64,000 bases of DNA from a virus (IMGVR_UViG_3300009744_000018); one strand, 5' to 3'; shown: positions 24,820 through 52,155, numbered from the stretch's first letter. Numbers and translations: made by a program. Notes: generated by a model not told the origin, from the letters alone.

Positions 24820-25010
24820 TCTTGACGCTCCTCGGGGCAAGCCCACGAGGATTCCTCATTCATAGAGAATTGCCTACTTAAAGCATAGCAAAAGCTAGAT
24901 TAATTAGGTCTTATGCTCTCTCCAAAGGCGTAAATTCGGGTAAGCCCTACCCTATATAGTCTATCTTATACCTAAATCTAATTTGCCTTGTTTTAAAAGA
25001 TTTTTACTAG
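24820..25010 (-). ncRNA. Candidate omega/reRNA of TnpB (overlaps the tnpB 3' end through the right-end hairpin)
   Basis: Position-based inference only. TnpB elements encode their guide RNA from the 3' end of tnpB plus the right end, and the RE hairpin is at 24830-24850. Confidence 0.3.
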
Positions 25011-26082
25011 CGTTTATATCCCTGTCGTGATTTGCACCACACTCACAAGTCCAAGTGCGAACTGATAAATCTTTGACTTTAGGATTTTTAGTACCACATT
25101 CTGAACAGGTTTGACTACTAGCAAAAAACCTATCTGCTTTGTGTAATATGCAATTATACCACTTGCTTTTGTATTCCAGCATTGTAGTAAACATATTCCA
25201 GGCACAATCAGAAATATGTTTTGCAAGTTTAGAATTTTTAAGCATACCTTTTACATTTAAGTCCTCTATGACTAAAAGTTGGTTCTCCTTTGTTAGACTA
25301 GTTGACAGTTTATGCAAAAAGTCTTTACGAATATTTTTGATTTTTTCATGAACTTTAGCAATTTTCTTTTTAAGTTTATACCAATTGTTACTACCTTCTT
25401 CTTTACGAGCTAACCTTCTTTGTAATTTAGCAAGTTTATCTTGATATTTAGAAAGGTGCCTAGGATTTGAAATATGTTCACCATTAGAAGTAGTTAAAAA
25501 GTCTTTAATTCCTAAATCTAATCCTAATTCACATTGATTATCTTTAACAATAGTTACTAAGACTTGTTTAACATTAATTGATATATAATATTTACCTGCT
25601 CTAGATTTAGAAACTGTAACATTATTAATTTTACCTTTAACCTCTTTAGATTTAGCAAACTTAATCCAAGATAGTTTTGGTAGTTTAATCTTATTTTCTT
25701 TAATTTCAATATTTGTTGTACCACTAGGTCTAATGAATTTTTGTGTTCTATATGATAGCCTAGCTTTTCTTTTAGATTTAAACTTAGGATAATTATATTT
25801 ACCACTAAAGAAATTCTTAAAAGCTCTATCCAGGTCTTTAAGACTTTGCTGTAAAGCTATACTATCTACTTCTTTAAGCCACTCATATTCTTTTTTTAAT
25901 TGAGGCAGTTGTCTGGAATATTTAGTATATGATTGATAATTTTCTTCTTTAGTTTTTGCTAAAAATTCGTTGTAAATGAATCTAGAACAACCAATAGTTT
26001 TATCAATTAATTCTTGTTGTTCTTGATTAGGATAAATTCTAAACTTATATGCTTTGTTAATTGGCTTAAATTTTTTAATCAT
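24961..26082 (-). CDS. tnpB: TnpB (IS605 OrfB family RNA-guided nuclease)
   Basis: N-terminus KAYKFRIYPNQEQQELIDKTIGCSRFIYNEFL, a RuvC-like core and a C-terminal zinc finger (CSECG..C.CG); 373 aa. Confidence 0.85.
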   Translation of the reverse strand: MIKKFKPINKAYKFRIYPNQEQQELIDKTIGCSRFIYNEFLAKTKEENYQSYTKYSRQLPQLKKEYEWLKEVDSIALQQSLKDLDRAFKNFFSGKYNYPKFKSKRKARLSYRTQKFIRPSGTTNIEIKENKIKLPKLSWIKFAKSKEVKGKINNVTVSKSRAGKYYISINVKQVLVTIVKDNQCELGLDLGIKDFLTTSNGEHISNPRHLSKYQDKLAKLQRRLARKEEGSNNWYKLKKKIAKVHEKIKNIRKDFLHKLSTSLTKENQLLVIEDLNVKGMLKNSKLAKHISDCAWNMFTTMLEYKSKWYNCILHKADRFFASSQTCSECGTKNPKVKDLSVRTWTCECGANHDRDINASKNLLKQGKLDLGIR

Positions 26083-36104: not shown

Positions 36105-37179
36105 CTAATTAGCTTTCTTAAAGAAATCTCCTTCAATCAATTTAACTTTATCAACCAGCATTGCATTACTTTTATCTTTTTTACCTTCAAGTTTTAATTT
36201 AAAACCTTTTTGAAATAAGTCATGATTGGAGCGATATGTGTCCGGAAAAACTACAAGTTTAATCTTATTTTTATCTGTTTTAACTTTTGCAAAAGCCATT
36301 AATTTATTTGACTTTCTGGTTTTAACCTCTTTAGATTCTGTAATTATGCCTTCCACCTCTAAGACCTCTCCGCTTTTAGCAAAATCCCATTCAGAAGGAT
36401 AGGTTAAAGATAAACCGATTGTGTCCATTTCGAATTCAATAATTTCTTCTTTTGTGGGTTCTGGTTCGTCAAAAACTCCAGAACCTTCCTCATTTTTGAA
36501 GGCATCAAATAGTGACTGCCTCATCTGTCCAAACTCTTTAATAGTCTTGTAATCTACAAGTAATTGTTTTCTGTTTTTGCCGAATGAATCCATTGCCCCA
36601 GCTTTAATTAAAGATTCAAAAGCTGTCTTATTAACAACTCTTGTATCAACCTTCTGGTACATATCATCTAGGTCTTTAAACGGTCTTTGATTCATTATTT
36701 CGGTGCTTGCTTTTTTACCTAAACCATCAATCGCATTTAAACCCAGTCTTATCTTCCCGTTAACAGCTGTAAAGCGCCCTTCTGACTCGTTAATGTCAGG
36801 AGGTAGTATATCTATCTTCTTTTTATAGCAGTCCGAGAAATAGTCCGTAATCGAGCTGTCAGAGCCACTCTTTGCTGCTTCAACACTCATGATAGCTGCA
36901 TAGAACTCTGCCGGAAAATGGTATTTAAGGTAAGCAGTGGCATAAGATATTAATGCATAGCAAGCAGAATGTGATTTATTAAAGCCATAGCCGGCAAAAT
37001 ATTCGATTAATCTAAACATTTCATCAGCAAATTCTTCTGTGTGGCCATTTTCTTTAGCTCCTGCTTTAAACTTAACTTTCATTTTTTCTAATACTTTTAT
37101 TTTCTTTTTTCCCATTCCACGCCTTAATATATCTGCCTCTCCCAGGCTGAAGTTAGCAATTATCTGTGCAGTTTTCATT
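36105..37179 (-). CDS. dnaE: DNA polymerase III alpha subunit (DnaE), exon 3 (C-terminal 357 aa)
   Basis: (V)MKTAQIIANFSLGEADILRRGMGKKK matches DnaE ..[31 protein letters not shown]. It continues exon 2, which ends ..YQEQV. Confidence 0.7.
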
Positions 37180-38755
37180 CAATTATGTTATCGCAAAAGC
37201 TTTTTATCTTCTGCTTCTATATCTGCTATCTTTACAAATATAGTTCGGCATACATTTTCACCTTATTTAAGGTGTCGAACACTCGTGGAGAGATTATATT
37301 TTACATATAAATGTAAGTTCACTCTCTATGCTCTACGGTATTAACAGATTTTTAGGTCTATTAATTACCTCGGTATTATCACATATAATATCCATTCTTT
37401 TTCTTTTTCTTGGTAGCCAAATATTAGCATCTTTGTACATGTATTTATATAGCTTTTTAGAAAATGATATACCACTTTGAAAGTAATATAGATTAGTACT
37501 TTTATGGATTGTTTTATTGCTTTTTATTACCTTTTGTATAGATTTAAGCATTTTTTTATTTCCACAAAACCCACTTCTCTTACTTTTTTTGATGCAAGTT
37601 ATGCCATCTCCATCAAAAAACCCTCTAATAAAGTGTCTATACATATTATCAGGTATTTGAAAGGGAAATGATTCTTTTCCCGTCTTATTAGGTATAACAC
37701 CATATTCAAATAATTTTTCAGTCATATGTCTTGATGTTAAGCTACATCTGCAACAGTAACCTTTTTTTGAATATCCAGAATTTTTACCAACATAAGGATT
37801 AAGAGAACTTTCTAAGTGGCTTAAAAACCCATAAATAATCTCTTTGTCCTTTAAGGCTACACCTAATTTTATAGAATATTGACCATTATAGATAGAAGTG
37901 TTTCCATCAGCCATTAAAAAACCCAAAAAATAAGCTTTTTCTTCTTTGTTTATTTTATCAAAAAAATCTTCTTTTTTTATGCTATTCTCTAATCCTCTTT
38001 TTATATCAAAACCTTCTTTCTTTAACCATAATGAAATAGTGTTTCTATTAATACCTGTTTCAGTTGCTATTTCACATAAATATAATCCTGATTTATAAAG
38101 ATTAACAACTCTTTTTTTATAAACATCTTTATATCCTATTTTATCCCCATGATTAAATTTTGAATTTTTTGTTAGTCCAGCATTTCTTAAATATTTATAC
38201 ACTGTACCAACACTTATATTCAATAATTTTGATATTTCTTTTCCAAACTTACCTTCATTATAAAGGTCCATTATTTTTTTGATTTTATATTCACTTATTT
38301 TTTCAGTTTTTTTAGATTTTTGTGGATTTTGTAAACTTATATCAGATTCATTAATCCATTTATAAATTGTACTTCTGCAAGGCATAATTTCCATTTTAGA
38401 AATATCAGTAACAGAAATGCCATCGCCATACATGTTTAATGCTTTTATTTTGCGTTGACTACTTTTCATCTTTATCACCTTCTACATATTGAAAGAGTAT
38501 ATACCTAACCATTTCAGAAAAATTAATTCCTTTTTTGTCAGCTATTTTTTGAATGTCTTCTTCCAGCTGTTCCGGTAAATAAATATTTCTTCTTTTCATT
38601 TTTATCATCTCCAACGTGTGGTATTTGTATCACCTTGCATACATTATTATAACACACATTGAATCATTTTTCAAATTATGGATATTTAGATAGTGGCTTC
38701 ACCGATTTTGCTCGATAATAATCTAGCTTATTTCTAAGCTGGACGGCAATTTCTT
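37180..38755 (-). other. Group-I-type intron in dnaE (intron 1) carrying a LAGLIDADG homing endonuclease ORF
   Basis: It interrupts the conserved DnaE sequence YQEQV|M. Exon 2 ends in U (..CAG GU) and the intron ends in G (..AAUUG) before A AUG. The intervening frame has stops, so this is not an intein. Confidence 0.55.
37333..38478 (-). CDS. LAGLIDADG homing endonuclease (intron-encoded), with N-terminal HTH repeats
   Basis: Two LAGLIDADG motifs (YFLGFLMADGNTS and FIRGFFDGDGIT). It is free-standing inside the dnaE intron. Confidence 0.7.
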   Translation of the reverse strand: MIKMKSSQRKIKALNMYGDGISVTDISKMEIMPCRSTIYKWINESDISLQNPQKSKKTEKISEYKIKKIMDLYNEGKFGKEISKLLNISVGTVYKYLRNAGLTKNSKFNHGDKIGYKDVYKKRVVNLYKSGLYLCEIATETGINRNTISLWLKKEGFDIKRGLENSIKKEDFFDKINKEEKAYFLGFLMADGNTSIYNGQYSIKLGVALKDKEIIYGFLSHLESSLNPYVGKNSGYSKKGYCCRCSLTSRHMTEKLFEYGVIPNKTGKESFPFQIPDNMYRHFIRGFFDGDGITCIKKSKRSGFCGNKKMLKSIQKVIKSNKTIHKSTNLYYFQSGISFSKKLYKYMYKDANIWLPRKRKRMDIICDNTEVINRPKNLLIP

Positions 38756-40707
38756 ACCTGTTCCTGGTATACTAGGTAACCGTATGTTTCCTCTAATTCC
38801 TTTTTTAAACTTTCGTGTGGATATTCTACTTTTTCATTACCGTGCATTCTGTCGAAATATTTTTCCACAATACCAGCTTCAAGTGGTCCCGGGCGACCGA
38901 GAGCAAGTATAGCAATTATATGCTCGAACTTTGTAGGTTTCATTTTCTTTAACAGCCTTTTAAATAGTTGTGATTCTACCTGAAAAACCCCGTTGGTATC
39001 AGCCTTCTGATAGATGTTTTTATATACATCTTTATCATCAAGAGGTAAATCCCAAATGTTTTGTACTGTAGGCTTATACTCTAAGCTATCATAATCTTTT
39101 CTGTTCTTGATAAACTTAATAGCCTCACCTATGATAACAACAGTCTTTAACCCTAAGAAATCCATCTTGAGCAAACCTAAATCTTCGCTATCGTGCATCT
39201 CTGTCTGAGTTACATATGTTATCTCACCAGTCTGGCTGTTTTTGGTTCGTGCTAAAGGTGTGTAATCATCAACAGGCTCTGGAGTAATAACAACTGCTGA
39301 GGCATGTGTACCTAACTGTCTAGGCTTACCTTCTAGCTTTTGAGCTATATCGAATAGTTTTGGATACTGTTCAGCATACATCTTAAGTTCTTTACTTTCT
39401 TCCAGTGCTTCCTTGATTGAAATACCTGGGGTATCGGGAAATGCCTTTGATATCTCTTTATTCATTAGATTGTAATCATATCCTAATACTCGGCCTACAT
39501 CTTTAACAGCTGATTTAGCACCTAGTGTACCAAAGTTACAGATACTTGCTACATTTTCTTCTCCGTATTTGTCGATTACATACTGGATAACTTTTCCTCT
39601 ATTTCCAAAATCTATATCAATATCAGGCATAGCAGTTCTTTCAGGATTTAAGAATCTTTCAAACAGCAGTCCATACTTAACAGGGTCTAAGGCTGTGATG
39701 CCTAAAAGATAGGATAGAAGTGAGCCTGCTGCAGACCCTCGACCAGGACCAACAATGATGTTATTATCTTTAGCCCACTGAACATAATCTTCAACAATTA
39801 AAAAGTAGGCAGGATACCCCTTCATATTTATAACCTCAAGCTCTGTATCAAGCCGTCTGGCGTATTTATCCATATCAATGTCTTTTTCTACAGCCAACTC
39901 AAAAAGCTTCTTAAAGGCCCTTTCTTCAAGGTATGACTCAAGTGTATAACCTTCAGGAACTTCGAACTTAGGAAGGAGTAAATTACCTAAATCAAGCTCG
40001 ACTGTATCACATTTATCGGCAATTTTTACTGTATTCTCAACTGCACTATCTCTGGCATCTATAAAATCAGACTCTACACTTTTTGCAAAAAGCTGACTTT
40101 TTATCTCATCTTCACCCTTAAAATAGTATGAATCTCCATGAAATCTAAATCTGTCATTATCTTCAACTTTTGCCCCTGTTTGAATACATAGCATAACGTC
40201 ATGAGCTTCTATACTGTCCTTTTCTAGATAGTGCATATCTGATGTAGCTACAAGCTCTATATCTAATTTTCTAGCTAAATTTGCAAGCTTTGAGTTCATT
40301 ACGTACTGCTCTGATACATCGTTGGCCATAATCTCTATATAGAAATCATCACCAAAAAGTTTTTTATATTTTAGAGCTATTTCTTCTGCTCTTTCATTGT
40401 TGTTATTCTCTAAGGCTCTTGGTATCTCTCCTGCAAGGCAGGCAGAACTTACTATAAGTCCTTCAGAATGCTCTTTTAAAATTTCAAAATCTATTCTTGG
40501 TTTATAATAAAAACCTTCTGTATTTGACTTACTCACCATCTTAAAAATATTATCCAATCCTTTTTTATTTTTAGCAAGGATTATAAGGTGGTGTCTTTTA
40601 CCTTCTTTATCATGCATGTCATTAGCTACATATACTTCAATTCCAAATATATGTTTAATTTCTTCTTCTTTGGCTGCTTTATAAAGCTCTACGAAATTAT
40701 GGATACT
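38756..40707 (-). CDS. dnaE: DNA polymerase III alpha subunit (DnaE), exon 2 (PHP and polymerase core)
   Basis: GPGRGSAAGSLLSYLLGITALDPVKYGLLFERFLNPERTAMPDIDIDF and a C-terminus ..LVYQEQV. The track ORF 38734-40710 includes intron-derived tail codons (RNCRPA*) and a spurious TTG start. Confidence 0.7.
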
Positions 40708-41837
40708 CAATTGTGTTATCCTACAAGTTTTTTACCATGTAGTTCTTGCAGTTCATTTCCTGCAAGTTCAGCATACCTTTTGCCCACCAGCATTACCTGT
40801 GAGGACAGGAGTCTCTTGGAAAAATTATATTCTTTAATACAAATTAAAGTTTCATTTTCTATGCGTTGCCCCTGACTAATATTTTAAAATTAGCCTTCGG
40901 TTCGGATTGGCTTCTCAGCTTTCCCGCTTAATACTCCTGTAATAATTCTAAACATTCCTGTTTAGAACGGCAAATTTATCATGTTTTCTCTTTAAATATA
41001 TATTAGCATCTTTATATAGGTAGTCTTTAATTTTCAAAACAGCAAGCCTTCCTGACTTTCTTATTTTGTACATATCAGATTTATGAAATTTTGGTTTTTG
41101 CATAAATATATCATTTTTTTCAAACTCATCAGATATTTCATTTAGCATATCTTTATAGCCCATTATATAAAATTCACAATTTAAAGAGTTCTTGTGATGG
41201 TTATCATTTCTTATTGAATATGATATACATCCATCACCGTCAAAGTAACCTCTTATAAAATGATTCATATATTCTTCTTTTATATTTGGTAATGAGTTTG
41301 TGTTTTTTACACCTAGTTTTATTAAGTCTTGATATATTTTTTTATTGGTAAAAGACAGAGTATATTGTCCAATATTACTATATCTATCCTTTCTTGGTTT
41401 AATGTAATATAATGGACCTGCATAACCAACTTCATTTTTTACATCTAAAAGAAGTTTTTTATCATCTTCTTTTAAACCAATAGAGGCCACATAACTTCTT
41501 CCTGAAATATATACGCTTCCATCTGAATAAAATAATCCTAATATATAGGCTTTCTCTTTAGAATTTATTTCAGAAAAATATTTTTGATTTATTTTATATT
41601 GTGGTTGACCTCCTGGATTTCTTGATTTTATATTATACTCTTTGAAAGTCGTTTGTATTTTTGAAGCACTTACATTAAAATATTTTCCTATATCTTTATG
41701 ACTTAAACCATCATTATAAAGATTTTTCATTTCATTAATTTGTTTTGTAGAAAAAATAATTTTTTTAGTAATTTTTATCACCCTCTTTAGCTTAAAGGTG
41801 CTAATATATTTATAATTATAACATGATATTAATGTTT
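40708..41837 (-). other. Group-I-type intron in dnaE (intron 2) carrying a second LAGLIDADG homing endonuclease ORF
   Basis: It interrupts the conserved PHP motif AITDHG|SIHNFVELYKAAK (compare DnaE AITDHGNMFGAVEFYKAAK). Exon 1 ends in U (GGU) and the intron ends in G (..CACAAUUG). Confidence 0.55.
40948..41781 (-). CDS. LAGLIDADG homing endonuclease (intron-encoded)
   Basis: Motifs YILGLFYSDGSV and FIRGYFDGDGCI, with an N-terminal HTH. Confidence 0.7.
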   Translation of the reverse strand: MIKITKKIIFSTKQINEMKNLYNDGLSHKDIGKYFNVSASKIQTTFKEYNIKSRNPGGQPQYKINQKYFSEINSKEKAYILGLFYSDGSVYISGRSYVASIGLKEDDKKLLLDVKNEVGYAGPLYYIKPRKDRYSNIGQYTLSFTNKKIYQDLIKLGVKNTNSLPNIKEEYMNHFIRGYFDGDGCISYSIRNDNHHKNSLNCEFYIMGYKDMLNEISDEFEKNDIFMQKPKFHKSDMYKIRKSGRLAVLKIKDYLYKDANIYLKRKHDKFAVLNRNV

Positions 41838-43607: not shown

Positions 43608-44147
43608 TTATATGTGAATTTTTTCTTTTAACATCACTTCTAATTCTCTTTTTGCAATTTCTTTTTCATCTTTTTGCAAATTGTTTTTTAAGCAAAATTC
43701 AAAGTCTATATTTGAGTTTTTAATAAATAATGCTGATTTATAAATACACTTCCAATCTTTACCTCCTGTTATAACAACGTTCTTGTGGTAGTTTAAAAAA
43801 CTGTTCTTTAAAACTAGATATATTTTATCAACTAGGTTCTCATTTGTTATTTTGTATATTTTTGAAACTTTAACCCCATTTGTATATAGTTTTACAACTA
43901 TATTTTTATGATTATTTTGCAAATATTTCAAAAATTGAACGAGGTCAGTTTGAAGCGTTGCCTCTCCGCCTCTTATGGTAATTTCCTCTAAATTTTTATA
44001 ATTTATATCTTCTTTATTAAAATTTTCTTTTTTTATTTTTGGAACTAGATGCAAATCCTTACAATCTGCACACCTTAAGTTACATCCCTGAACATAGATT
44101 GTTAACTTCTTACCGTCCTCTGAATATTCCTTCTTATAAATATTCAT
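43608..44147 (-). CDS. Radical SAM 4Fe-4S activase-family protein (NrdG/PflA/QueE-like), second copy
   Basis: GCNLRCADC (CxxxCxxC, activase variant) and ITIRGGEATLQ...KLYTNG, collinear with NrdG at 45873; 179 aa. Confidence 0.55.
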   Translation of the reverse strand: MNIYKKEYSEDGKKLTIYVQGCNLRCADCKDLHLVPKIKKENFNKEDINYKNLEEITIRGGEATLQTDLVQFLKYLQNNHKNIVVKLYTNGVKVSKIYKITNENLVDKIYLVLKNSFLNYHKNVVITGGKDWKCIYKSALFIKNSNIDFEFCLKNNLQKDEKEIAKRELEVMLKEKIHI

Positions 44148-44196
44148 TCCAAACCTCCTAAAATAAAAACCCCCAAAATTAATTGAGGGTTTGAAT

Positions 44197-45384
44197 TTAT
44201 TTTTTATATTTTTCTTTTATTAAAAATGAGACCTGTATCCCGATTCCTATTAATGCTGCAAGTCCTACACCGCTAAATTTATAAACTGTTATTCCACTTA
44301 GTCCAAAAACTATCATCGTAGAAGCTATAAATGTATTCTTTGGACTTGTGAAATCGACTTTATTTGAAACAAAAGTTTTAAAGCCTAGAGTTGCTATATT
44401 ACCAAAAAGAATAATCATAACTCCTCCAACAACAGCTGTTGGTATTGACTGCAGAAAAGCTGCTAATACACCTACAAAGCTAAATATAATTGCAAATATA
44501 CCTGCATTTCTTGTAACTTTTGGGTCTCTTATCTTTAATAGACTAACTGCTGATGTTCCTTCTGAGTAAGTTGTATTTGGTACAGAGCCTACAAAAGAAA
44601 GCATTGTGCCTATTCCATCAATTAACATCGTCCTGTGCATCCCTGGTGACTTATAATACTTATTACCAGTTGCTTCACTTACTGCAAATACATCACCAAA
44701 ATGCTCTATTGTTGGAGCTAAGGCAAATGGCAGTATGTAAATTGCTGCGCTTAAATTAAATCTTGGGAGTGTAAATTCAGGCATGCTTACTAGTGGTAGA
44801 GAAACAAATGTTACCTCTCCTAGAAGCAAAGCTGATATATATCCTGTTAAAATAGCTATCAAAACTGAATATAATCTTGTTACTCCTTCTGTAAACATCA
44901 TAAAATATCCTGCTGTAGATAATGTTATAATAGCTAAAAGCCAATTACCTGAAGCCATATCTATACCGGTATCTATCAGGGTCAACCCTATCAGCATAAT
45001 CATTGTTCCTGAGATTACTGGAGGGAAAAGTTTTTCTGAGATGAAGTCACTGCCTGTTTTTTTAATTACAAATGAAAATAAAACTTTCATAATTCCCGCA
45101 ACACCTAATGCAAAGAAAACAGATGGCATATCCCATCTATCCTGTATATAAATTATTGGTGCTATATAGGCAAATGATGAGCCTAGAAAAATTATTGGTG
45201 CTCCATATTCACCTCTACCAAAATAATGCATGATAAGAGTCGATATACCTGCTGTAAATAAAACAATAGATGTTGAGATACCCGTCAAAAGTGGTACCAA
45301 AATCGTAGCGCCAAAGCAGACTACAAGCATCTGTAAACCTAAAAGCCATGTGTTATTTCCAATATTGAAATTCTCTGATTTCAT
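44197..45384 (-). CDS. NCS2-family nucleobase (uracil/xanthine) permease
   Basis: At least 10 TM helices. LQMLVVCFGATILVPLLTGISTSIVLFTAGISTL matches the NCS2 signature (LQHvlAMFGATVLVPlLtG...LFtaGIgTL). Confidence 0.7.
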   Translation of the reverse strand: MKSENFNIGNNTWLLGLQMLVVCFGATILVPLLTGISTSIVLFTAGISTLIMHYFGRGEYGAPIIFLGSSFAYIAPIIYIQDRWDMPSVFFALGVAGIMKVLFSFVIKKTGSDFISEKLFPPVISGTMIMLIGLTLIDTGIDMASGNWLLAIITLSTAGYFMMFTEGVTRLYSVLIAILTGYISALLLGEVTFVSLPLVSMPEFTLPRFNLSAAIYILPFALAPTIEHFGDVFAVSEATGNKYYKSPGMHRTMLIDGIGTMLSFVGSVPNTTYSEGTSAVSLLKIRDPKVTRNAGIFAIIFSFVGVLAAFLQSIPTAVVGGVMIILFGNIATLGFKTFVSNKVDFTSPKNTFIASTMIVFGLSGITVYKFSGVGLAALIGIGIQVSFLIKEKYKK

Positions 45385-45405
45385 TAATATTGTGCCTCCT
45401 GTTTT

Positions 45406-45699
45406 TTATAACCAATTATATTTTTTTACGTAATAAAAATCTTCGCTTATACCACAATAAGGGCAAACCTTTACTTTCTTTTCTGGATGAGTTTTAAATT
45501 TTCTATTTTTGCCACATATAGGACACCATGTATAAATTATTCTTCTGTCTGGTTTTTTGAAATCCTTGTGTTTGTAAAGTGTTACTTTTTTGTACTTCTT
45601 TTTTTGTTTTTTGTAATATTTTTCTGCCTCTTTTTTGCTTGTAAACTTTTCTTTTTCATATTTAAATTTTTTCTTAGCTGTAATTACAAACCACTTCAA
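45406..45699 (-). CDS. Lysine-rich zinc-ribbon protein
   Basis: CPICGKNRKF...CPYCG, in a highly basic protein. Confidence 0.4.
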   Translation of the reverse strand: MKWFVITAKKKFKYEKEKFTSKKEAEKYYKKQKKKYKKVTLYKHKDFKKPDRRIIYTWCPICGKNRKFKTHPEKKVKVCPYCGISEDFYYVKKYNWL

Positions 45700-45725
45700 T
45701 TAATACCTCCCCCTTTAAGAGATAT

Positions 45726-45854
45726 TTACAGTACTTTATCAAATGTTTTTCTGTCTTTCCACTCTTCTTTTTTTCCTTTATTCCAATGAGAGATAGGTGT
45801 TAAAAACCCAACAACTCTGGAATAAACTTCACATCTAGTTCTTTTGCTTTCCAT
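45726..45854 (-). CDS. Stand-alone glycyl-radical motif peptide (42 aa) homologous to the NrdD C-terminus
   Basis: Strong RBS (AAAGGAGGTGG) 8 nt before the ATG, 18 nt after the nrdG stop. MESKRTRCEVYSRVVGFLTPISHWNKGKKEEWKDRK matches the NrdD C-terminal glycyl-radical region (..RVCGYLGSP....NAGKQEEVKRR). It is not in the ORF track. Confidence 0.6.
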   Translation of the reverse strand: MESKRTRCEVYSRVVGFLTPISHWNKGKKEEWKDRKTFDKVL

Positions 45855-45872
45855 AATTACCACCTCCTTTCT

Positions 45873-46589
45873 TTAATTTCTTATTCTTACATTATCAATA
45901 TACTCTTCAGCAATGCTTTTAAATTCCTTTAACTTTTTTTCACTAAAACCATTTTTGCCACAGAGTTCTTTATTATAAGTAGAATCACCTTTGAAATTCT
46001 GGATAAAATACCAGTCAGAATTTATTATCTGAGAGGCGATTTCTCTAATGTCCTCACTTTCATGCATTCCTGGTACTACTGTGGTTCTGATTTCATACTG
46101 AACATCATATTTTTCTTTGGCCTGATATATATTATATAAAGAGCGTTTAATCTTATCTAAATTAATCTTGCCTCCTAATGAGCCGTATCTCTCATATGGC
46201 ATTTTAAAATCCATTGCTATATAATCTATAAGACCAGAAGACGCAAGGTATAAAAGTTTTTTAGGATAGGAACCGTTAGTATCAATCTTAACTTTTAATC
46301 CCATAGTTTTAACTTTTTCAAGGAATAATTTTAAATCATCAATATCCTGCATTAAGGGCTCTCCACCAGTAATAGTAACTCCATCTATCTTTCCTTTTCT
46401 TTCGTTTAGGAACATTAAAATTTCATCTTCGTTAATTAAATTTTCTTTGTCTTTTATATCTTCACTTATTAATGATGGGTTGTGGCAGTAAGGACATCGT
46501 AAATTACAACCCTGAGTAAATAAGATTGTAGAAATATGTTCTGGATAATCCATCAAAGAAGTCTTTTGTATTCCTGCAAATTTAATCAT
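45873..46589 (-). CDS. nrdG: Anaerobic ribonucleoside-triphosphate reductase activating protein
   Basis: FTQGCNLRCPYCHNP, ITGGEPL, and the right size class (238 aa). Confidence 0.75.
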   Translation of the reverse strand: MIKFAGIQKTSLMDYPEHISTILFTQGCNLRCPYCHNPSLISEDIKDKENLINEDEILMFLNERKGKIDGVTITGGEPLMQDIDDLKLFLEKVKTMGLKVKIDTNGSYPKKLLYLASSGLIDYIAMDFKMPYERYGSLGGKINLDKIKRSLYNIYQAKEKYDVQYEIRTTVVPGMHESEDIREIASQIINSDWYFIQNFKGDSTYNKELCGKNGFSEKKLKEFKSIAEEYIDNVRIRN

Positions 46590-47184
46590 TTAAACCCTCA
46601 CCAAACCTTTTTACAAAAGCTTTTTCATCTGCTGGCATTTGCTCAAAGCCAATCTCCACTAATCCATGTAGCCTTATAATTTCATAAAAAATAGCAATAG
46701 ACTTTTTAAGCTCTCCATCATTATTTTTAATAGTGTAGTCCGCTATTTCTTTATTTTTTCTTTCACGAGTCTTAATCATGTGCCAAACTCTCTTGAATGC
46801 AGCTTTAAACCCATCTCTTTTATAAAGTCTTTTTGCAAGCTGATAGAATGGTACATCAATGTAGATAACTCTAACCTCATCACCATACATGCCTTTCATT
46901 TGTCTGACTCCGTTTCTGTCCATAATTACAAATACAGAATCGTTATCCTCTAACTTTCTTTCAACTTCTCTTGTTGAGAGGCAGTAATAGTTGCCGGCGT
47001 ATTCTGTAAACTCAGCTTTATTCATTTTGTCTATGTCTTTTTTGGTAACAAAATAGTAAGTCTCTCCGTGAACTTCTCCTTTTCTCATATCTCTTGAGGT
47101 GTGGGATACAAGCTCAGGTAATCCTGAGCCTTTACCGATTGCAGTTTTACCAGAGCCTGAAGGTCCCATTAAGATATATATCAT
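46582..47184 (-). CDS. gmk: Guanylate kinase
   Basis: ILMGPSGSGKT (P-loop) and SHTSRDMRKGEVHGETYYFV, matching Gmk STTTRxPRxGExdGvDYhFV. Confidence 0.7.
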   Translation of the reverse strand: MIYILMGPSGSGKTAIGKGSGLPELVSHTSRDMRKGEVHGETYYFVTKKDIDKMNKAEFTEYAGNYYCLSTREVERKLEDNDSVFVIMDRNGVRQMKGMYGDEVRVIYIDVPFYQLAKRLYKRDGFKAAFKRVWHMIKTRERKNKEIADYTIKNNDGELKKSIAIFYEIIRLHGLVEIGFEQMPADEKAFVKRFGEGLND

Positions 47185-47195
47185 ATTTAACCCCC

Positions 47196-47615
47196 TTAAA
47201 TTTCTAATTCATTTTCTAAAATAGTTCTTGTCTTATCGGTTAATTTAATTTTTTCTTTATTATTTAAGTAATACTCTTTGGCTGTGTCACCAAATTTCAA
47301 ACTCATAGCCTCCCAGTCAACTACCATTTGTTGAATATATTTTAGTGGTATCTCCATAGGTTTTCCCTGTGGGCCTATCCAGTGATTCCAATGGTGAGGA
47401 TTATTATAATAGTGGTGTCTCCATGCCATCTCAAATCGGTGCTTGTATTTTTCTTTATCTTTATAAAAATATCCTGCATAAGCCCAAAATTCGCTACCAG
47501 TTAATTTAGATAAATCATGGGTAAAAGCATGAACGAACATACCCTTACCCATTGCAATTTTAAAAACATTCCATTTGTGTTCTAAAACATAAAGTAAATA
47601 TTTTAAAATATACAT
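47196..47615 (-). CDS. Hypothetical His/Trp-rich protein
   Basis: 139-aa ORF (WRHHYYNNPHHWNHW); no assignable family. Confidence 0.4.
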   Translation of the reverse strand: MYILKYLLYVLEHKWNVFKIAMGKGMFVHAFTHDLSKLTGSEFWAYAGYFYKDKEKYKHRFEMAWRHHYYNNPHHWNHWIGPQGKPMEIPLKYIQQMVVDWEAMSLKFGDTAKEYYLNNKEKIKLTDKTRTILENELEI

Positions 47616-47618
47616 TTA

Positions 47619-50600
47619 CTAACCCTCATATCCGTTTTCAGCATCACACTTAGGACAGAATTCGTGTTCTCCTGGCAGATACCCATGTATTGGACAAATA
47701 CTAAAAGTAGGAGTAATAGAGTAATAAGGAAGTTCATAATTTTCAGCAACTCTTTTAACAAACTTTTTGGTAGCCTCTATTCCAGGCATTCTCTCTCCTA
47801 GAAATAAATGTAAAACTGTTCCTCCTGTATAATTTTTCTGAAGTTCATCCTGCCAATCTAAAGCTTCAAAAGGGTCGTCTGTAGCCCCTACAGGTAGCTG
47901 AGTTGAATTAGTGTAATACGGGTCAGCATCTTCTGTATAAACCCTTTTATCATTAGCAAAAACAGCTTCTTCTTTCCCAAACTTATCAAGGTCTGATTTG
48001 GCCAATCTATAGCTTGTTCCTTCAGCTGGAGTAGCTTCAAGGTTAAAAAGGTCACTTGTTTCTTCCTGGTACTCCACCATTCTTTCTTTCATTTTGTACA
48101 TAACCCATTTAGTAAATTTAATAGCTTCATGTTCTGTCATATCTTTTCCTAAGAAATTCATAACAGATTCATTCATTCCATTTAATCCGATTGTATTAAA
48201 GTGATTTTTCCAGTACTCTCCAAAACGTTCCTTAATACTTCTTAGATAAAACTTAGAATAAGGGTAAAGACCTGCATCTGTTAACTCTTCTAAAATTCTT
48301 CTTTTAATTTCTAAACTTTCTTTTGCAATATCCATTAATTCATAGACTCTCTCTAAATAATCATCAGTATTTTCTGCTAAAAGTCCAATTCTGGGCATAT
48401 TAAGTGTTACTACACCGATAGAGCCTGTCATAGGCGATGAGCCGAATAAACCTCCTCCTCGCTTTCTTAATTGCCGATTATCAAGGCGCAGCCTGCAGTT
48501 ATGAGTCAAGATTCCAGTTGTGCCAACCGTAAACATTGGTTCTCCATCTTTGACTTCAAAACAATAAGCCGTTTGTTTTTCTTTTAGTTTTTCAACTTTA
48601 TCTATTTTCATCCACAGTTTTGAGTCTTTTTTAAACCAAACGTCGCCATAACTATTTCTATTTAATTTGTAAAATAAAACAGCATAATTTGGATTATCTC
48701 CTAGTCTTCCATCACTTTTTTTTCTGTCATCAGTATAAACATTGGTTGTTGTTCCCAGAGTAGCAGCTAACATATTTAAGCTTTCTACCATTTTTTCTGA
48801 TGATGTATAAATTCTATTTTTGTTTCCTCCATCAGTTTCATAATAGCCATCAAATAATCCTGTTCTAAAGTGTTTGCTCATTTCAAAAACATTTGCTTTG
48901 AAGTATTTATTTAATGCATTATCCCCATCAACAAAACTTTCAATCATTGATTTTACTGCTGGATTATATGTTGAAAGTTTAACTACATTATTTTTTTCTT
49001 CTTTTTCGGTAAATTTAGCCCCAAAAAGTTTAGTCAGTATTTCTTTTAAATTTTCAAGCACTGTTAGCTTGGTATTATTATTTAAAGAAAAAACAGTTCC
49101 TGTATTTTTATCACAGCTTCCGTCTCCTGCAAAAGCTCCTATTAAATAGCCAAGGTCATAAGTTCCTCCTTCGCCTTTAAAACTTGTTAAGCTATAAGGT
49201 AGATAATAACCTTCTTTTAAGTCTTTTCCTGACATTTCTTCAATATCTTTATTTTTATTTTTGATAACAAAATTTAAATGTTCTTCAGTCATCTTTATCT
49301 CATGCCCGTTAACCAATCTTACATTTATCATATTTTGATTTTCAAACTTATTGAATCGACCTTCTATAAATTTACCATCAGAATAGACTAATATATCATC
49401 ATTATCTTTAGTGTCATAATATGTGTGGTTAATTTGGGAGTATCTTACATTGTCATCACCTGTTTTAACTAATACCTTTTCTTTTCCGTCAAGTGGACAC
49501 ATTGAGCGAGCGTCTTCAGCTTTCATATCGGAATTGACGAAGTTCGCAAAATATGGAATTCCGTACTTGGCTGTCATTTCCCAAACAGGATTTAATATTT
49601 CGTTATCCCAATCAAAATCTGGAGTAATGTTATAAGTAGGAATAGGGAAAGAAAATACTCTTCCTTTTGAATCTCCCGCCAGCATAACCTCAGCAAAAGC
49701 CTTGTTAATCATGTCCATTTCCTTCTGGAAATTTTTAAGCGGCATGTCATAAAGCATTTCGCCACCAATAATAGCTGGGTCCTCTGCCATATTTGATGGA
49801 CAAACTAAATCCATAGTTAAATTTGTAAAAGGACTTTGAAATCCAACCCGTGTCGGTACATTTAAATTAAAAATAAATTCCTGCATAGCCTGATAAACTT
49901 CATCATAATCAAGTCCATCATAAGATACAAACGGTGCAAGATAAGTATCGAAACTTGAAAAAGCTTGAGCTCCAGAACTCTCTCCCTGTAAAGTATATAA
50001 AAAATTAACCATTTGTCCTAAAGCAGTTCTGAAGTGTTTTGGTGGTGCCGACTCTATCTTGGTTGACACTCCTGAAAAACCTTCCAATAATAAATCCTGA
50101 AGGTCCCATCCACAACAGTAATTACTTAAATTAGCAAGGTCGTGAATGTGCAAATCTCCACTTACATGCTTTTCTTTAATGTGTTTAGGGTAAATTTCAT
50201 TTAACCAATAATGGCCTGTCACCTCGCTTGCTATATGATTATTTAAACCCTGAAGACTATAACCCATATTGGAGTTCTCATTAACTTTCCAATTGCTTAA
50301 ATCAAGGTAATTATTAACTGTATCATTTATTCCATTGTATAGTTTTTGAGCATCTCTATACTTTTCATGCTGCTTTCTATATAATATATAGTTTTTTGCT
50401 ATTTCATAATGTCTGTTTTCCATTAATTCATACTCAACAATATCCTGTAAAGTCTCAACATTAACAGAGTTTAATCCAGAACTAATCATTCCACTTATAT
50501 TATCTTCTATTTCTTCAACAATATTATTTGCAACAAAATTCCAAAAATCTTCACCTTTTTTTTCTGCTGTTGCCTTCGCTGCTTTATAAACTGCATCTTT

Positions 50601-50660
50601 AATTTTTTTATTTTTATATTCTACTTTTCTTCCGTCTCTTTTAATTACATAAAACGACAT
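47619..50660 (-). CDS. nrdD: Anaerobic ribonucleoside-triphosphate reductase NrdD (ATP-cone plus class III RNR), contains an intein; ORF ends before the glycyl-radical motif
   Basis: N-terminal ATP-cone (VIKRDGRKVEY), GDLHIHDL, and a C-terminal Zn-ribbon CPIHGY..CPKC. There is no RVxG(Y/F) Gly-radical motif. The intein is at residues 388-721. Confidence 0.8.
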   Translation of the reverse strand: MSFYVIKRDGRKVEYKNKKIKDAVYKAAKATAEKKGEDFWNFVANNIVEEIEDNISGMISSGLNSVNVETLQDIVEYELMENRHYEIAKNYILYRKQHEKYRDAQKLYNGINDTVNNYLDLSNWKVNENSNMGYSLQGLNNHIASEVTGHYWLNEIYPKHIKEKHVSGDLHIHDLANLSNYCCGWDLQDLLLEGFSGVSTKIESAPPKHFRTALGQMVNFLYTLQGESSGAQAFSSFDTYLAPFVSYDGLDYDEVYQAMQEFIFNLNVPTRVGFQSPFTNLTMDLVCPSNMAEDPAIIGGEMLYDMPLKNFQKEMDMINKAFAEVMLAGDSKGRVFSFPIPTYNITPDFDWDNEILNPVWEMTAKYGIPYFANFVNSDMKAEDARSMCPLDGKEKVLVKTGDDNVRYSQINHTYYDTKDNDDILVYSDGKFIEGRFNKFENQNMINVRLVNGHEIKMTEEHLNFVIKNKNKDIEEMSGKDLKEGYYLPYSLTSFKGEGGTYDLGYLIGAFAGDGSCDKNTGTVFSLNNNTKLTVLENLKEILTKLFGAKFTEKEEKNNVVKLSTYNPAVKSMIESFVDGDNALNKYFKANVFEMSKHFRTGLFDGYYETDGGNKNRIYTSSEKMVESLNMLAATLGTTTNVYTDDRKKSDGRLGDNPNYAVLFYKLNRNSYGDVWFKKDSKLWMKIDKVEKLKEKQTAYCFEVKDGEPMFTVGTTGILTHNCRLRLDNRQLRKRGGGLFGSSPMTGSIGVVTLNMPRIGLLAENTDDYLERVYELMDIAKESLEIKRRILEELTDAGLYPYSKFYLRSIKERFGEYWKNHFNTIGLNGMNESVMNFLGKDMTEHEAIKFTKWVMYKMKERMVEYQEETSDLFNLEATPAEGTSYRLAKSDLDKFGKEEAVFANDKRVYTEDADPYYTNSTQLPVGATDDPFEALDWQDELQKNYTGGTVLHLFLGERMPGIEATKKFVKRVAENYELPYYSITPTFSICPIHGYLPGEHEFCPKCDAENGYEG
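48498..49499 (-). mobile_element. Intein (334 aa) with LAGLIDADG endonuclease domain within NrdD
   Basis: Inserted in the conserved ..DARSM|C..: it begins with Cys (CPLDGKEKVLV) and ends ..GILTHN, followed by Cys of CRLRLD. LAGLIDADG-like motifs LIGAFAGDGS and LFDGYYETDGG. It is in-frame with no stops. Confidence 0.7.
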
Positions 50661-50672
50661 TTTACTCCCCCT

Positions 50673-51047
50673 TTAAATTATTAACCGTTTATTTTTTACT
50701 TTCTGTTTTTTATTTATTACTATTTTTTTATCTTTAAGGTCTTCGTTTAAGTTTACATTATAAAATCTTTTATAAAGCTTTGAGGCCTCATCATTTAGGC
50801 AATCTTTTACATTTTGGCCACATGTTTTATGATTATAAAGGCAGTCTGAACAAAAAACACTTATAGATTCTTCTTCACTTCTCTCGTTTTTATAATCATC
50901 ACTAATATTTAAATTATTGATTTTACACTTTATAGCATTTTCAGTCCTGTTTATAACTTTAGACAATTCTTTAGCTGAAAGCCTTGGATATTGCAGAAGA
51001 TAAAACATTTCTGTAGCTGTCCATCTCTTAGAAGCCATACATATCAT
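50673..51047 (-). CDS. Hypothetical Cys-containing protein
   Basis: 124-aa ORF. Confidence 0.35.
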   Translation of the reverse strand: MICMASKRWTATEMFYLLQYPRLSAKELSKVINRTENAIKCKINNLNISDDYKNERSEEESISVFCSDCLYNHKTCGQNVKDCLNDEASKLYKRFYNVNLNEDLKDKKIVINKKQKVKNKRLII

Positions 51048-51050
51048 CCC

Positions 51051-51887
51051 TTATTTTATATTTTTTAATCTTCTATAGATTGTCATCGGAGTTTTATCCA
51101 GCATATCTCCTATTTCTTCAACAGTTTTGTTATTAACTAAGTACTCATTAGCTATTATTTTATTCTCTATGTTCTTATCTTTTATTTTTTCAAGTTTATT
51201 TCTGATAGTATTAATCCTTCTTGAAATTGATGATTTAGATTTTCCTAATCTCTCACCTATTTCGTCTAAGATTAAATGGTCTTCAAATCTTAGTTTTAAA
51301 ATTAACCTTTCTTCAATTGTTAAATCAGAAAATCTATTGTTGCATGTATTTCCATTAACCCAATCTCTATCAATACTTGTTTTTGAAACTTCATCTTTTT
51401 CTGTGACTAAAAATGGATTTTGCATAGGCCACTTTTCTATATTATCTGATAAAGGTTCTGTCTTTACATTGTCTACTGTATTGTTTTTTAGTATATAAGG
51501 AAAATAAATTGACAAGAAATAATCAAATGGACTTTCAACTTCTTTTCTTTCATCATATTCTGATATATCAAAAACATCTAAAGAAATTAAAAAAGATAAT
51601 TTTACATCCTGATAGACATCTTCAAAATCATATGCTGAATATATTGCGTTAATAACACTTACAACATTGGTTAATTCTTCTACTGAAGAGCTGCCTCCTG
51701 GCTGAAGAAGTCTAAGAAAGTTTTTAACTGAAGTGTTGCTTTTATAAGAGCCGTGATAAATAAGCGAAACAAAGTTTTTTATGAATGCATCATACATGTC
51801 TAAAAGTTTTTGTCCTGACTCTTTATTTCCTTTTTTGTATTCTTCTATTAGCTTTAGTTTTTCACTCATCATAATTTCCCTCTTCAA
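51051..51887 (-). CDS. Sigma-70 region-4-containing putative sigma factor / transcription regulator
   Basis: LTIEERLILKLRFEDHLILDEIGERLGKSKSSISRRINTIRNKL resembles sigma-70 region 4. A second C-terminal HTH is TVEEIGDMLDKTPMTIYRRLKNI. Confidence 0.5.
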   Translation of the reverse strand: MKREIMMSEKLKLIEEYKKGNKESGQKLLDMYDAFIKNFVSLIYHGSYKSNTSVKNFLRLLQPGGSSSVEELTNVVSVINAIYSAYDFEDVYQDVKLSFLISLDVFDISEYDERKEVESPFDYFLSIYFPYILKNNTVDNVKTEPLSDNIEKWPMQNPFLVTEKDEVSKTSIDRDWVNGNTCNNRFSDLTIEERLILKLRFEDHLILDEIGERLGKSKSSISRRINTIRNKLEKIKDKNIENKIIANEYLVNNKTVEEIGDMLDKTPMTIYRRLKNIK

Positions 51888-52155
51888 AATCTTCTATTAA
51901 CTTCCTCAAAGTATCTTCTATATTTCCATTGTAATCTCCAGAAAACCCATCATCCAAACCTTTATCAACTAACAAGTTTGTTTCCGCACTATCAAAAGGA
52001 TTAAAAAATAAAAATTCAATCTCAGTCCCTAAAGTTTGACTTTCTTTGTCTACCTGTCCTAACATGCATAAAAAATCTTTAATATCCTGTGGGTGTTCAG
52101 AAAAAATTTCATCAAAGCTCATTTCTACATCGAAATTATCAAAATTAAATTTCAT
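51862..52155 (-). CDS. Hypothetical acidic protein
   Basis: 97-aa ORF. Confidence 0.35.
   Translation of the reverse strand: MKFNFDNFDVEMSFDEIFSEHPQDIKDFLCMLGQVDKESQTLGTEIEFLFFNPFDSAETNLLVDKGLDDGFSGDYNGNIEDTLRKLIEDFEEGNYDE

Follow-up and report, generated by a model that had tools for sequence, protein, structure and literature searches.

How could a glycyl-radical enzyme work if its gene stops short of the glycine? By definition, enzymes of this group carry a radical glycine in the C-terminal domain of their own chain. The question is raised by a locus for class III (anaerobic) ribonucleotide reductase (RNR) in a virus, IMGVR_UViG_3300009744_000018, of which a stretch of 64,000 nucleotides (hereafter the window) was analysed. 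The nrdD gene of this locus, encoding the catalytic subunit, ends without a glycyl-radical loop, and a small open reading frame (ORF) of 42 aa that follows the activase gene nrdG encodes such a loop. An earlier note on this DNA had described this arrangement and had put forward three scenarios: an enzyme made of two polypeptides, a gene split by rearrangement or by an endonuclease, and a disabled nrdD. Here we refer to the product of the large ORF as NrdD' and to the small ORF and its product as mini, and we argue that the locus probably encodes a natural two-polypeptide class III RNR, a reading based on sequence comparison.

The C-terminal end of NrdD on a separate ORF

The C-terminus encoded by the nrdD ORF is ...SICPIHGYLPGEHEFCPKCDAENGYEG; TAG, TAA and then the start codon ATG of the following gene come next, and the last residues before the TAG and TAA read ...CPIHGYLPGEHEFCPKCDAENGYEG. 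The ORF stops 8 residues past the CPKC of the Zn-ribbon. Both the sequence and the profiles bear out the earlier description that the gene ends after this ribbon and before the glycyl-radical element. The length of 1013 aa given for it is correct for the ORF but not for the size of NrdD, because an intein of 333 or 334 aa had been overlooked. The large ORF contains the NRDD barrel domain (PF13597, E = 2.8e-174) and its closest NCBIfam model is NF006126 (972 bits versus a cutoff of 548). In an alignment, the Zn-ribbon CPIH-x9-CPKC of NrdD' pairs with the Zn-site region of T. maritima NrdD. A glycyl-radical motif hidden in the main ORF had been named as a possible objection; no RVxG[YF] was found there, and within the window only the 42-aa ORF has this motif. 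Profile searches of the window detected neither a second NrdD nor a second mini or Gly-loop sequence.

The mini product has the sequence MESKRTRCEVYSRVVGFLTPISHWNKGKKEEWKDRKTFDKVL. Its ATG is located at 45854, 18 nt past the nrdG stop, and the codon of Gly16 at 45807..45809. The strong ribosome-binding site (RBS) that had been placed 18 nt past the nrdG stop is present, but it is the ATG that lies at this distance, while the AAAGGAGGTGG sequence begins 2 nt past the stop. As proposed earlier, the 42-aa product matches the C-termini of NrdD proteins including the radical Gly. Against Pfam NRDD only the final 32 positions match (531-562 of 562, E = 2.9e-9), and the same holds for the extreme C-terminus (last ~32 positions) of four NCBIfam NrdD models. 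The large ORF and mini occupy adjacent, non-overlapping segments of the NrdD profiles; in NF006127, for example, the large ORF runs to profile position 595 and mini begins at 595. The concatenation of the two is collinear with T. maritima NrdD (4coi) across the junction (CPKC/CPVC and YSRVVGF/YMRIVGY), with a sole gap, an 11-residue insertion right at the two free ends. The two pieces placed end to end thus rebuild the end of a NrdD, as the earlier note had suggested checking. From the YSRVVGF/YMRIVGY alignment, Gly16 of mini is the counterpart of Gly621, which is the radical site of T. maritima NrdD (PMC4493059).

Judged by these sequence comparisons, the match between mini and NrdD is far beyond chance. 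A profile of the mini family matches the ORF in the window at E = 7e-31. For mini, searches of Pfam (E <= 0.1) and NCBIfam (E <= 0.01) returned only NrdD models, with no PF01228 or GrcA-type homology. Neither of the two databases contains a model specific to the mini peptide, and the PHROGs gave a single kind of hit, a weak match to the full-length NrdD family. Eight residues ahead of the radical Gly, mini has a cysteine (Cys8, 45831..45833); of 92 minis, 89 keep it and the others have it two residues away. An equivalent Cys is found in some contiguous relatives (..QPCEVYSRVVGY..), but not in T. maritima NrdD.

We also modelled the fused extein and mini using AlphaFold2 (AF2), which predicted a confident class III core (mean predicted local distance difference test, pLDDT, of 79.8). 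Foldseek relates this model to the class III RNR structures 1h79, 4coj and 8p2s (TM ~0.7). AF2 run on the single sequence gave no usable model (pLDDT 34).

Conservation and distribution of the split

The split arrangement occurs widely, in bacteria and archaea as well as in phages. An identical nrdG is present in at least 22 metagenome contigs, and the locus is identical or 98% identical in these contigs; inspection of six of their loci showed the same gene order and a 42-aa gene call in all six. The objection that the split could be an assembly error fails, since at least 22 contigs as well as cellular genomes have it.

A word-index search with mini detected 91 homologs, all of them stand-alone proteins (38-68 aa). 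Their cellular sources include Aminobacterium, Jonquetella, Pyramidobacter, Dethiosulfovibrio, Halothermothrix orenii, Iocasia, Patescibacteria and Elusimicrobiota, and the phage mini is 79-90% identical to the minis of Synergistota and Halanaerobiales. Using a mini profile, we searched a library of 1.84 billion 50%-identity representatives and obtained 5099 matches at E <= 1e-3. Of the best 150 of these 5099 matches, all but one (149) are stand-alone proteins, 48-149 aa long and with M, V or L as the first residue, and YSRVVG[YF] does not vary. In the first 92 mini sequences no variation occurs at Y-S-R-V-V-G, N, K, E and R, and the N- and C-terminal extensions vary freely; the core of the peptide is constant over hundreds of clusters. 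The complementary picture was obtained with the C-terminal half of NrdD': among its best 120 homologs, 96-98 stop 8-85 residues past the Zn-ribbon, and the 22 contiguous ones read CPKCV.EQ.TEVYSRVVGY. The free ends of the two pieces are variable (8-85 aa for the NrdD' tails, 1-50 aa for the mini heads).

Two gene orders were identified. H. orenii and Jonquetella have an operon nrdD'-nrdG-mini with an NrdD' of 676-683 aa, an order also seen in Halanaerobium and Synergistales. In H. orenii and Jonquetella, NrdD' ends in ...CPIHGY(L/I)PGEHEYCP(K/I)CDAE..., and the break point is that of the phage. The second order, nrdD'-mini(-nrdG), is found in Patescibacteria, Elusimicrobiota, Pacearchaeota and one further contig. 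At these loci, nrdD' ends with TAA, additional stops lie beyond it and mini is in another frame with its own GGAGG, which together argue that the split in these lineages is a gene fission. For the same reasons (TAA, several following stops, different frame and separate RBS), recoding of a stop codon is ruled out in the cases from the Candidate Phyla Radiation (CPR). An apparent third NrdD split, in L014, proved to be an artefact from a run of N.

To place these loci among species genomes, we considered the best 80 loci in GTDB with a neighbourhood of 4 kb, counting loci. A contiguous nrdD is present at 38 of them (various lineages), the order nrdD'-nrdG-mini at 10 (Halanaerobiales, Synergistales and metagenome-assembled genomes (MAGs) of Bacillota) and the order nrdD'-mini-nrdG at 18 (Saccharibacteria, Dojkabacteria, Woese-, Micr- and Nanobdellota archaea, Thermoplasmatales, Bipolaricaulota, Hippea and others), and at eight (various lineages) the 4 kb around a mini lack an nrdD. 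A neighbour-joining tree nests the phage NrdD' among the split enzymes of Halanaerobiales and Synergistota. The minis of the phage and Jonquetella differ by 22 synonymous and 9 non-synonymous codons, which points to purifying selection on mini.

The conservation speaks against a decaying or disabled nrdD with a remnant ORF downstream. The gene is truncated compared with a textbook NrdD and contains an intein in addition, but its architecture is maintained over bacterial and archaeal phyla and phages and was found in 22 or more independent contigs. Given also that the radical motif does not vary and that most substitutions are synonymous, we regard decay as hardly credible. A recent split in this phage by a homing endonuclease or a rearrangement, as in the nrdA of Aeromonas phage Aeh1, would fit the abundance of LAGLIDADG elements in this phage, which has them in the nrdD intein and as insertions in DNA polymerase III alpha, and the earlier note had likewise considered a split of the T-even nrdA type. 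However, Pfam detects no endonuclease domain in the genes between the pieces (DUF5662, gmk and nrdG), no homing-endonuclease gene is located at the split and the only endonuclease lies elsewhere, inside the intein. Moreover, H. orenii and Jonquetella share the break point and the sequence that flanks it with the phage, both being identical, and the phage NrdD' nests in a clade of split cellular enzymes. We consider such a recent event extremely improbable.

A single NrdD chain could also be restored from the pieces, at the RNA level through trans-splicing or an intron, in translation through ribosomal bypassing, or at the protein level through trans-splicing or ligation. Interruptions of phage nrdD genes by group I introns and inteins are known (PMC3653736), and the Cys eight residues before the mini Gly is conserved. 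However, this Cys is present in contiguous relatives too, three complete genes intervene between the pieces, and an Rfam scan of 44000..52000 matched zero families even at E <= 1. In addition, other lineages have the order nrdD'-mini-nrdG with differing frames and separate RBSs, and the length-variable free ends are too short for split-intein halves. Rejoining is therefore quite improbable in our view. The two-polypeptide enzyme, the first of the scenarios in the earlier note and the one favoured there, is supported by conservation across phyla in two gene orders, with a stop, a frame and an RBS of its own for each mini.

Besides the minis, we detected "midi" proteins of ~115 aa that combine a Cys-rich Zn-ribbon-like module (CHDC...C..CF) with a YSRVVGY loop and have no NrdD within 4 kb. 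They come from L149 (~3760-4110), L156 and L171 (Thermodesulfobacteriota/delta MAGs) and from the viral L088 as well as from P0310 and P0342, and are in effect complete stand-alone NrdD glycyl-radical domains.

Mini genes alone in viruses

Among the best 80 of 487 confirmed loci in IMG/VR, inspected with a neighbourhood of 6 kb, ~67 have mini alone, without nrdD or nrdG inside 6 kb. A check of the loci with profile hidden Markov models detected a large NrdD ORF in 6 only and NrdG in none. The mini-alone genes have plainly phage surroundings and are encoded among structural, lysis or packaging genes (loci L016-L095), for example close to a tail collar domain (L027, mini 5989-6132), close to a GH108 endolysin, a holin and YqaJ/RecT (L035, mini 6007-6147) or ahead of the portal gene, flanked by terS and terL (L019, mini 5950-6105). 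Over 8.1 kb, the last of these segments matches a 396-kb Synergistaceae MAG contig (L099) at 100% identity and is thus a prophage; the RNR of its host phylum is itself of the split type. Given that these genes have no nrdD or nrdG nearby, the peptide would be sensible only if acting in trans. Some viral contigs contain two mini genes ~10 kb apart (pairs L048/L085, L049/L091 and L050/L092). Among the cultured phages of INPHARED, the only match is one of 231 bp to the nrdD of an Oceanotoga phage, and mini itself matches only the C-termini of four contiguous phage NrdDs.

It is therefore worth asking if the peptide of our locus acts mainly or only in trans on a split NrdD' of the host, re-armed with the NrdG of the host or the phage, the intein-interrupted NrdD' of the phage being of minor importance. 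Most related viral contigs hold mini alone, as at the terS/terL site of the Synergistaceae prophage, the phage mini is close in sequence to the Synergistota and Halanaerobiales minis, and the intein, which appears to start with Pro, is of doubtful competence (see below). Against this, the phage retains an intact nrdD' and nrdG, its NrdD' scores far over the NCBIfam equivalog cutoff, and the nrdD' genes of two phage variants differ at 10 synonymous versus 5 non-synonymous codons. We judge an exclusive or main role on the host enzyme unlikely; it is in any case compatible with the two-polypeptide reading and not exclusive of it.

An intein in the finger loop

The intein of the phage nrdD' is inserted between the two Cys of the finger-loop motif MCCRL (the thiyl-radical loop). 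Cellular orthologs have an uninterrupted ARSMCCRLRLD, where the phage has ARSMC-PLDGKEK...AYCFEV...GILTHN-CRLRLD. The intein comprises 333 aa (aa 389-721), or 334 aa with a start at 49499 if Cys388 is counted as residue 1. It is 30% identical to the NrdD intein of Clostridium phage c-st, with which it shares the insertion site, and in a gapless alignment of the two (ASC-CFDGQQK... in c-st) Pro is intein position 1. The c-st intein begins with Cys, whereas that of the phage appears to begin with Pro. Further residues are a Cys at block F:4 (AYCFEV), a Thr at G:5 (LTHN), an Asn at B:12 and a Cys at +1.

Class 3 inteins have a non-nucleophilic residue 1, the set Trp(B:12)-Cys(F:4)-Thr(G:5) and a Ser or Thr at +1, and their prototype, MP-Be DnaB, starts with Pro (PMC2807308). 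The phage intein resembles class 3 inteins in its F:4 Cys and G:5 Thr, and MP-Be DnaB in its apparent N-terminal Pro, but differs from class 3 in having Asn and not Trp at B:12 and Cys and not Ser/Thr at +1, and its splicing competence is therefore uncertain. Only after the predicted splicing at Pro389/Asn721 would the MCCRL motif of the phage NrdD' be complete.

Proposed mechanism

From the architecture, conservation and distribution of the split we infer how the radical would be installed on the peptide, how the peptide would dock, that the pair would be active and why a replaceable peptide might be of use in repair. NrdD' would mature via intein splicing and contain, besides the ATP-cone and the Zn-ribbon, the catalytic barrel including its finger loop. 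The 42-aa peptide would supply the tail WNKGK..E...R and, as Gly16 of its YSRVVGF, the radical glycine. It would be an obligate subunit rather than a spare one, because the large subunit has no glycine of its own. The glycyl-radical domain must swing out for activation by NrdG, and the covalently attached Gly loop of the T4, T. maritima and P. copri NrdD sits in the barrel against the finger-loop Cys. In the two-polypeptide enzyme, NrdG, a radical-SAM protein, would take the C-alpha hydrogen of Gly16 from the free or loosely bound peptide, and the activated loop would then occupy the NrdD' barrel non-covalently, against the finger-loop cysteine. Since oxygen cleaves the chain at the glycyl radical, damage would cost only a consumable of 5 kDa, and the 680-aa enzyme would not have to be resynthesised. 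The phage has probably obtained the split architecture from cellular lineages near Halanaerobiales and Synergistota and added gmk and DUF5662 between nrdD' and nrdG as well as the intein within nrdD'.

Several points weigh against this proposal. No biochemical evidence for a two-piece NrdD was found anywhere. The finger loop and the Gly loop of the AF2 model have pLDDT values < 50, so that the model neither supports nor refutes docking of the Gly loop. The cellular surveys count loci, and genomes with a split locus may have a contiguous NrdD elsewhere. The main caveat for the activity of the phage NrdD' is its intein with an apparent Pro start and no Trp at B:12; were it splicing-defective, the phage NrdD' would be inactive and mini might serve the host enzyme alone. 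Finally, the repair ("cartridge") rationale is speculation by analogy with GrcA.

Locus layout and genome context

The features of the locus are listed in Table 1. The genes from nrdD' to mini are close-packed on one strand, in the order described in the earlier note, whose ORF of unknown function corresponds to DUF5662. The guanylate-kinase-like gene scores under the NCBIfam equivalog cutoff, and the cellular operons of H. orenii and Jonquetella have neither this gene nor DUF5662.

Table 1. Features of the split nrdD locus, with positions counted from the first nucleotide of the window
Feature	Position	Strand	Size or evidence
nrdD' precursor (class III RNR catalytic subunit; ATP-cone, alpha/beta barrel, Zn-ribbon; without glycyl-radical loop)	47619..50660	minus	1013 aa with intein, extein 680 aa
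ATP-cone, aa 4-99 of nrdD'	50364..50651	minus	Pfam PF03477, E = 2.8e-20
LAGLIDADG intein in nrdD', aa 389-721 (Pro1 reading)	48498..49496	minus	Pfam Intein_splicing and LAGLIDADG_3, NCBIfam intein_Cterm
Zn-ribbon CPIH-x9-CPKC (C989, H992, C1002, C1005), on the large subunit	47646..47696	minus	Alignment with the T. maritima CEDGH...CPVC Zn-site region
DUF5662 gene, phage-specific insertion between nrdD' and nrdG	47196..47615	minus	Pfam PF18907, E = 5.7e-30
Guanylate-kinase-like gene (gmk), phage-specific insertion	46582..47184	minus	Pfam Guanylate_kin, E = 2.4e-18; phrog_1815
nrdG, radical-SAM activase, CNLRCPYC (CX3CX2C) cluster motif	45873..46589	minus	NCBIfam TIGR02495 NrdG2, 190.7 bits versus cutoff 131
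Shine-Dalgarno sequence AAAGGAGGTGG of mini-ORF	45860..45870	minus	Sequence inspection
Mini-ORF, 42 aa, glycyl-radical loop and C-terminal tail of NrdD	45726..45854	minus	Pfam NRDD positions 531-562

The operon is 100% identical to a stretch of a 188-kb ENA metagenome contig, and contigs with the same nrdG product reach the size class of 0.2-1 Mb. Related contigs encode DnaB, PolIII-alpha, RecJ, RuvC, a sigma factor and Tmk, and a 1962-aa protein of the window matches a virion structural PHROG. Based on the contig sizes, the set of replication genes and the structural match, the source (GC content 32%) is read as a large phage. We found no tRNAs in the window, and matches to promoter and terminator consensus sequences were at no more than chance level.

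Several neighbouring genes, all on the minus strand, deserve mention. Directly after mini lies a Lys-rich ORF of 97 aa with a C-terminal Zn-ribbon (CPICG...CPYCG; 45406..45699), which is kept in all related contigs and has no family match. A 395-aa uracil/xanthine permease of the NCS2 family (44197..45384) is encoded beside the RNR genes and is an unusual auxiliary gene for nucleobase uptake. Two genes downstream of mini, and likewise kept in all related contigs, is a second, divergent NrdG2-like radical-SAM protein of 179 aa (43608..44147, CNLRCADC), with a TIGR02495 score of 70.7 bits, under the cutoff of 131. DNA polymerase III alpha is a single gene of 1036 aa in some phage variants (L001:13849-16959) and is in pieces in the window (36105..41781). 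The pieces (658 aa at 38734..40710 and 357 aa at 36105..37178) are set apart by a LAGLIDADG ORF (40948..41781), an endonuclease/HTH ORF (37333..38478) and small genes. Within the phage genome, a 373-aa ORF (24961..26082) matches a PHROG annotated as transposase (phrog_506, E = 5e-132).

Comparison with known systems and implications

Like the canonical class III RNRs of E. coli, T4, T. maritima and P. copri, the system combines an ATP-cone and a barrel with a Zn-ribbon, an RVxG[YF] loop with a WN.GK tail and an NrdG activase; the finger-loop Cys motif would be shared as well once the intein is spliced out. Unlike in canonical NrdD, the Gly loop and tail are on a separate 42-aa product while the core retains the Zn site, so that the glycyl-radical domain itself is divided between two polypeptides.

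GrcA/YfiD of E. coli and Y06I of T4 are likewise small stand-alone carriers of a radical glycine with a cognate radical-SAM activase that act in trans on a large enzyme, as mini would. T4 Y06I, which serves pyruvate formate-lyase (PFL), offers a phage-encoded precedent for an autonomous glycyl-radical cofactor (PMC8683613). The analogy to GrcA/YfiD drawn in the earlier note fits the mechanism, but neither the family membership, the peptide being derived from NrdD and not from PFL, nor the role as a spare part. GrcA, YfiD and Y06I are proteins of ~127 aa with a disordered N-terminus and are homologous to the PFL C-terminus, whereas mini matches NrdD models only; furthermore, they rescue an enzyme that normally has its own glycine, whereas the NrdD' partner never has a Gly loop.

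Another likeness is to RNRs whose catalytic subunit is made as two polypeptides, namely NrdJa/NrdJb (Pseudomonas aeruginosa and Thermus phage phiYS40) and NrdA-a/NrdA-b (Aeh1), which assemble non-covalently and stay functional (PMC4520616; PMC3653736). These are splits of class II or class I enzymes that cut the core or the C-terminal redox tail, in Aeh1 via the mobE endonuclease, and they never part the radical-bearing residue from the catalytic subunit, as the phage NrdD'/mini pair does.

According to a 2026 review in Biochemistry, spare-part proteins are known among glycyl-radical enzymes only for formate lyases and are "yet to be determined" for others (PMC13450708), in agreement with a 2021 article in JBC that reports autonomous glycyl-radical proteins only for PFL and leaves the others open (PMC8683613). 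We found no description of an NrdD with the Gly loop as a separate gene in the open-access literature and bioRxiv, and a report elsewhere is possible. On balance, and with some reservation, we favour the view that NrdD-type glycyl-radical peptides are a large unrecognised class of autonomous radical cofactors, the first outside the PFL system.

If this is true, the class III RNRs in many lineages (CPR, DPANN, Synergistota, Halanaerobiales and others) would be glycyl-radical enzymes of two obligatory pieces, with the radical on an exchangeable peptide of ~45 aa, and many phages would carry the gene for this peptide alone, as a minimal auxiliary gene that re-arms the anaerobic RNR of the host in infection. 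The locus and its relatives provide a concrete, cloneable candidate for a class III RNR whose peptide would be separate as a rule and not as a repair part. If confirmed, the peptide would offer a minimal substrate of 5 kDa for the study of target recognition and activation by NrdG, and annotations would be corrected, with thousands of "partial" NrdDs pairing with "hypothetical" ORFs of 40-70 aa. Confirmation would also reveal a tiny, widespread phage auxiliary gene and explain a possible cheap recovery of deoxynucleoside triphosphate synthesis after transient oxygen, in organisms and phages alike.

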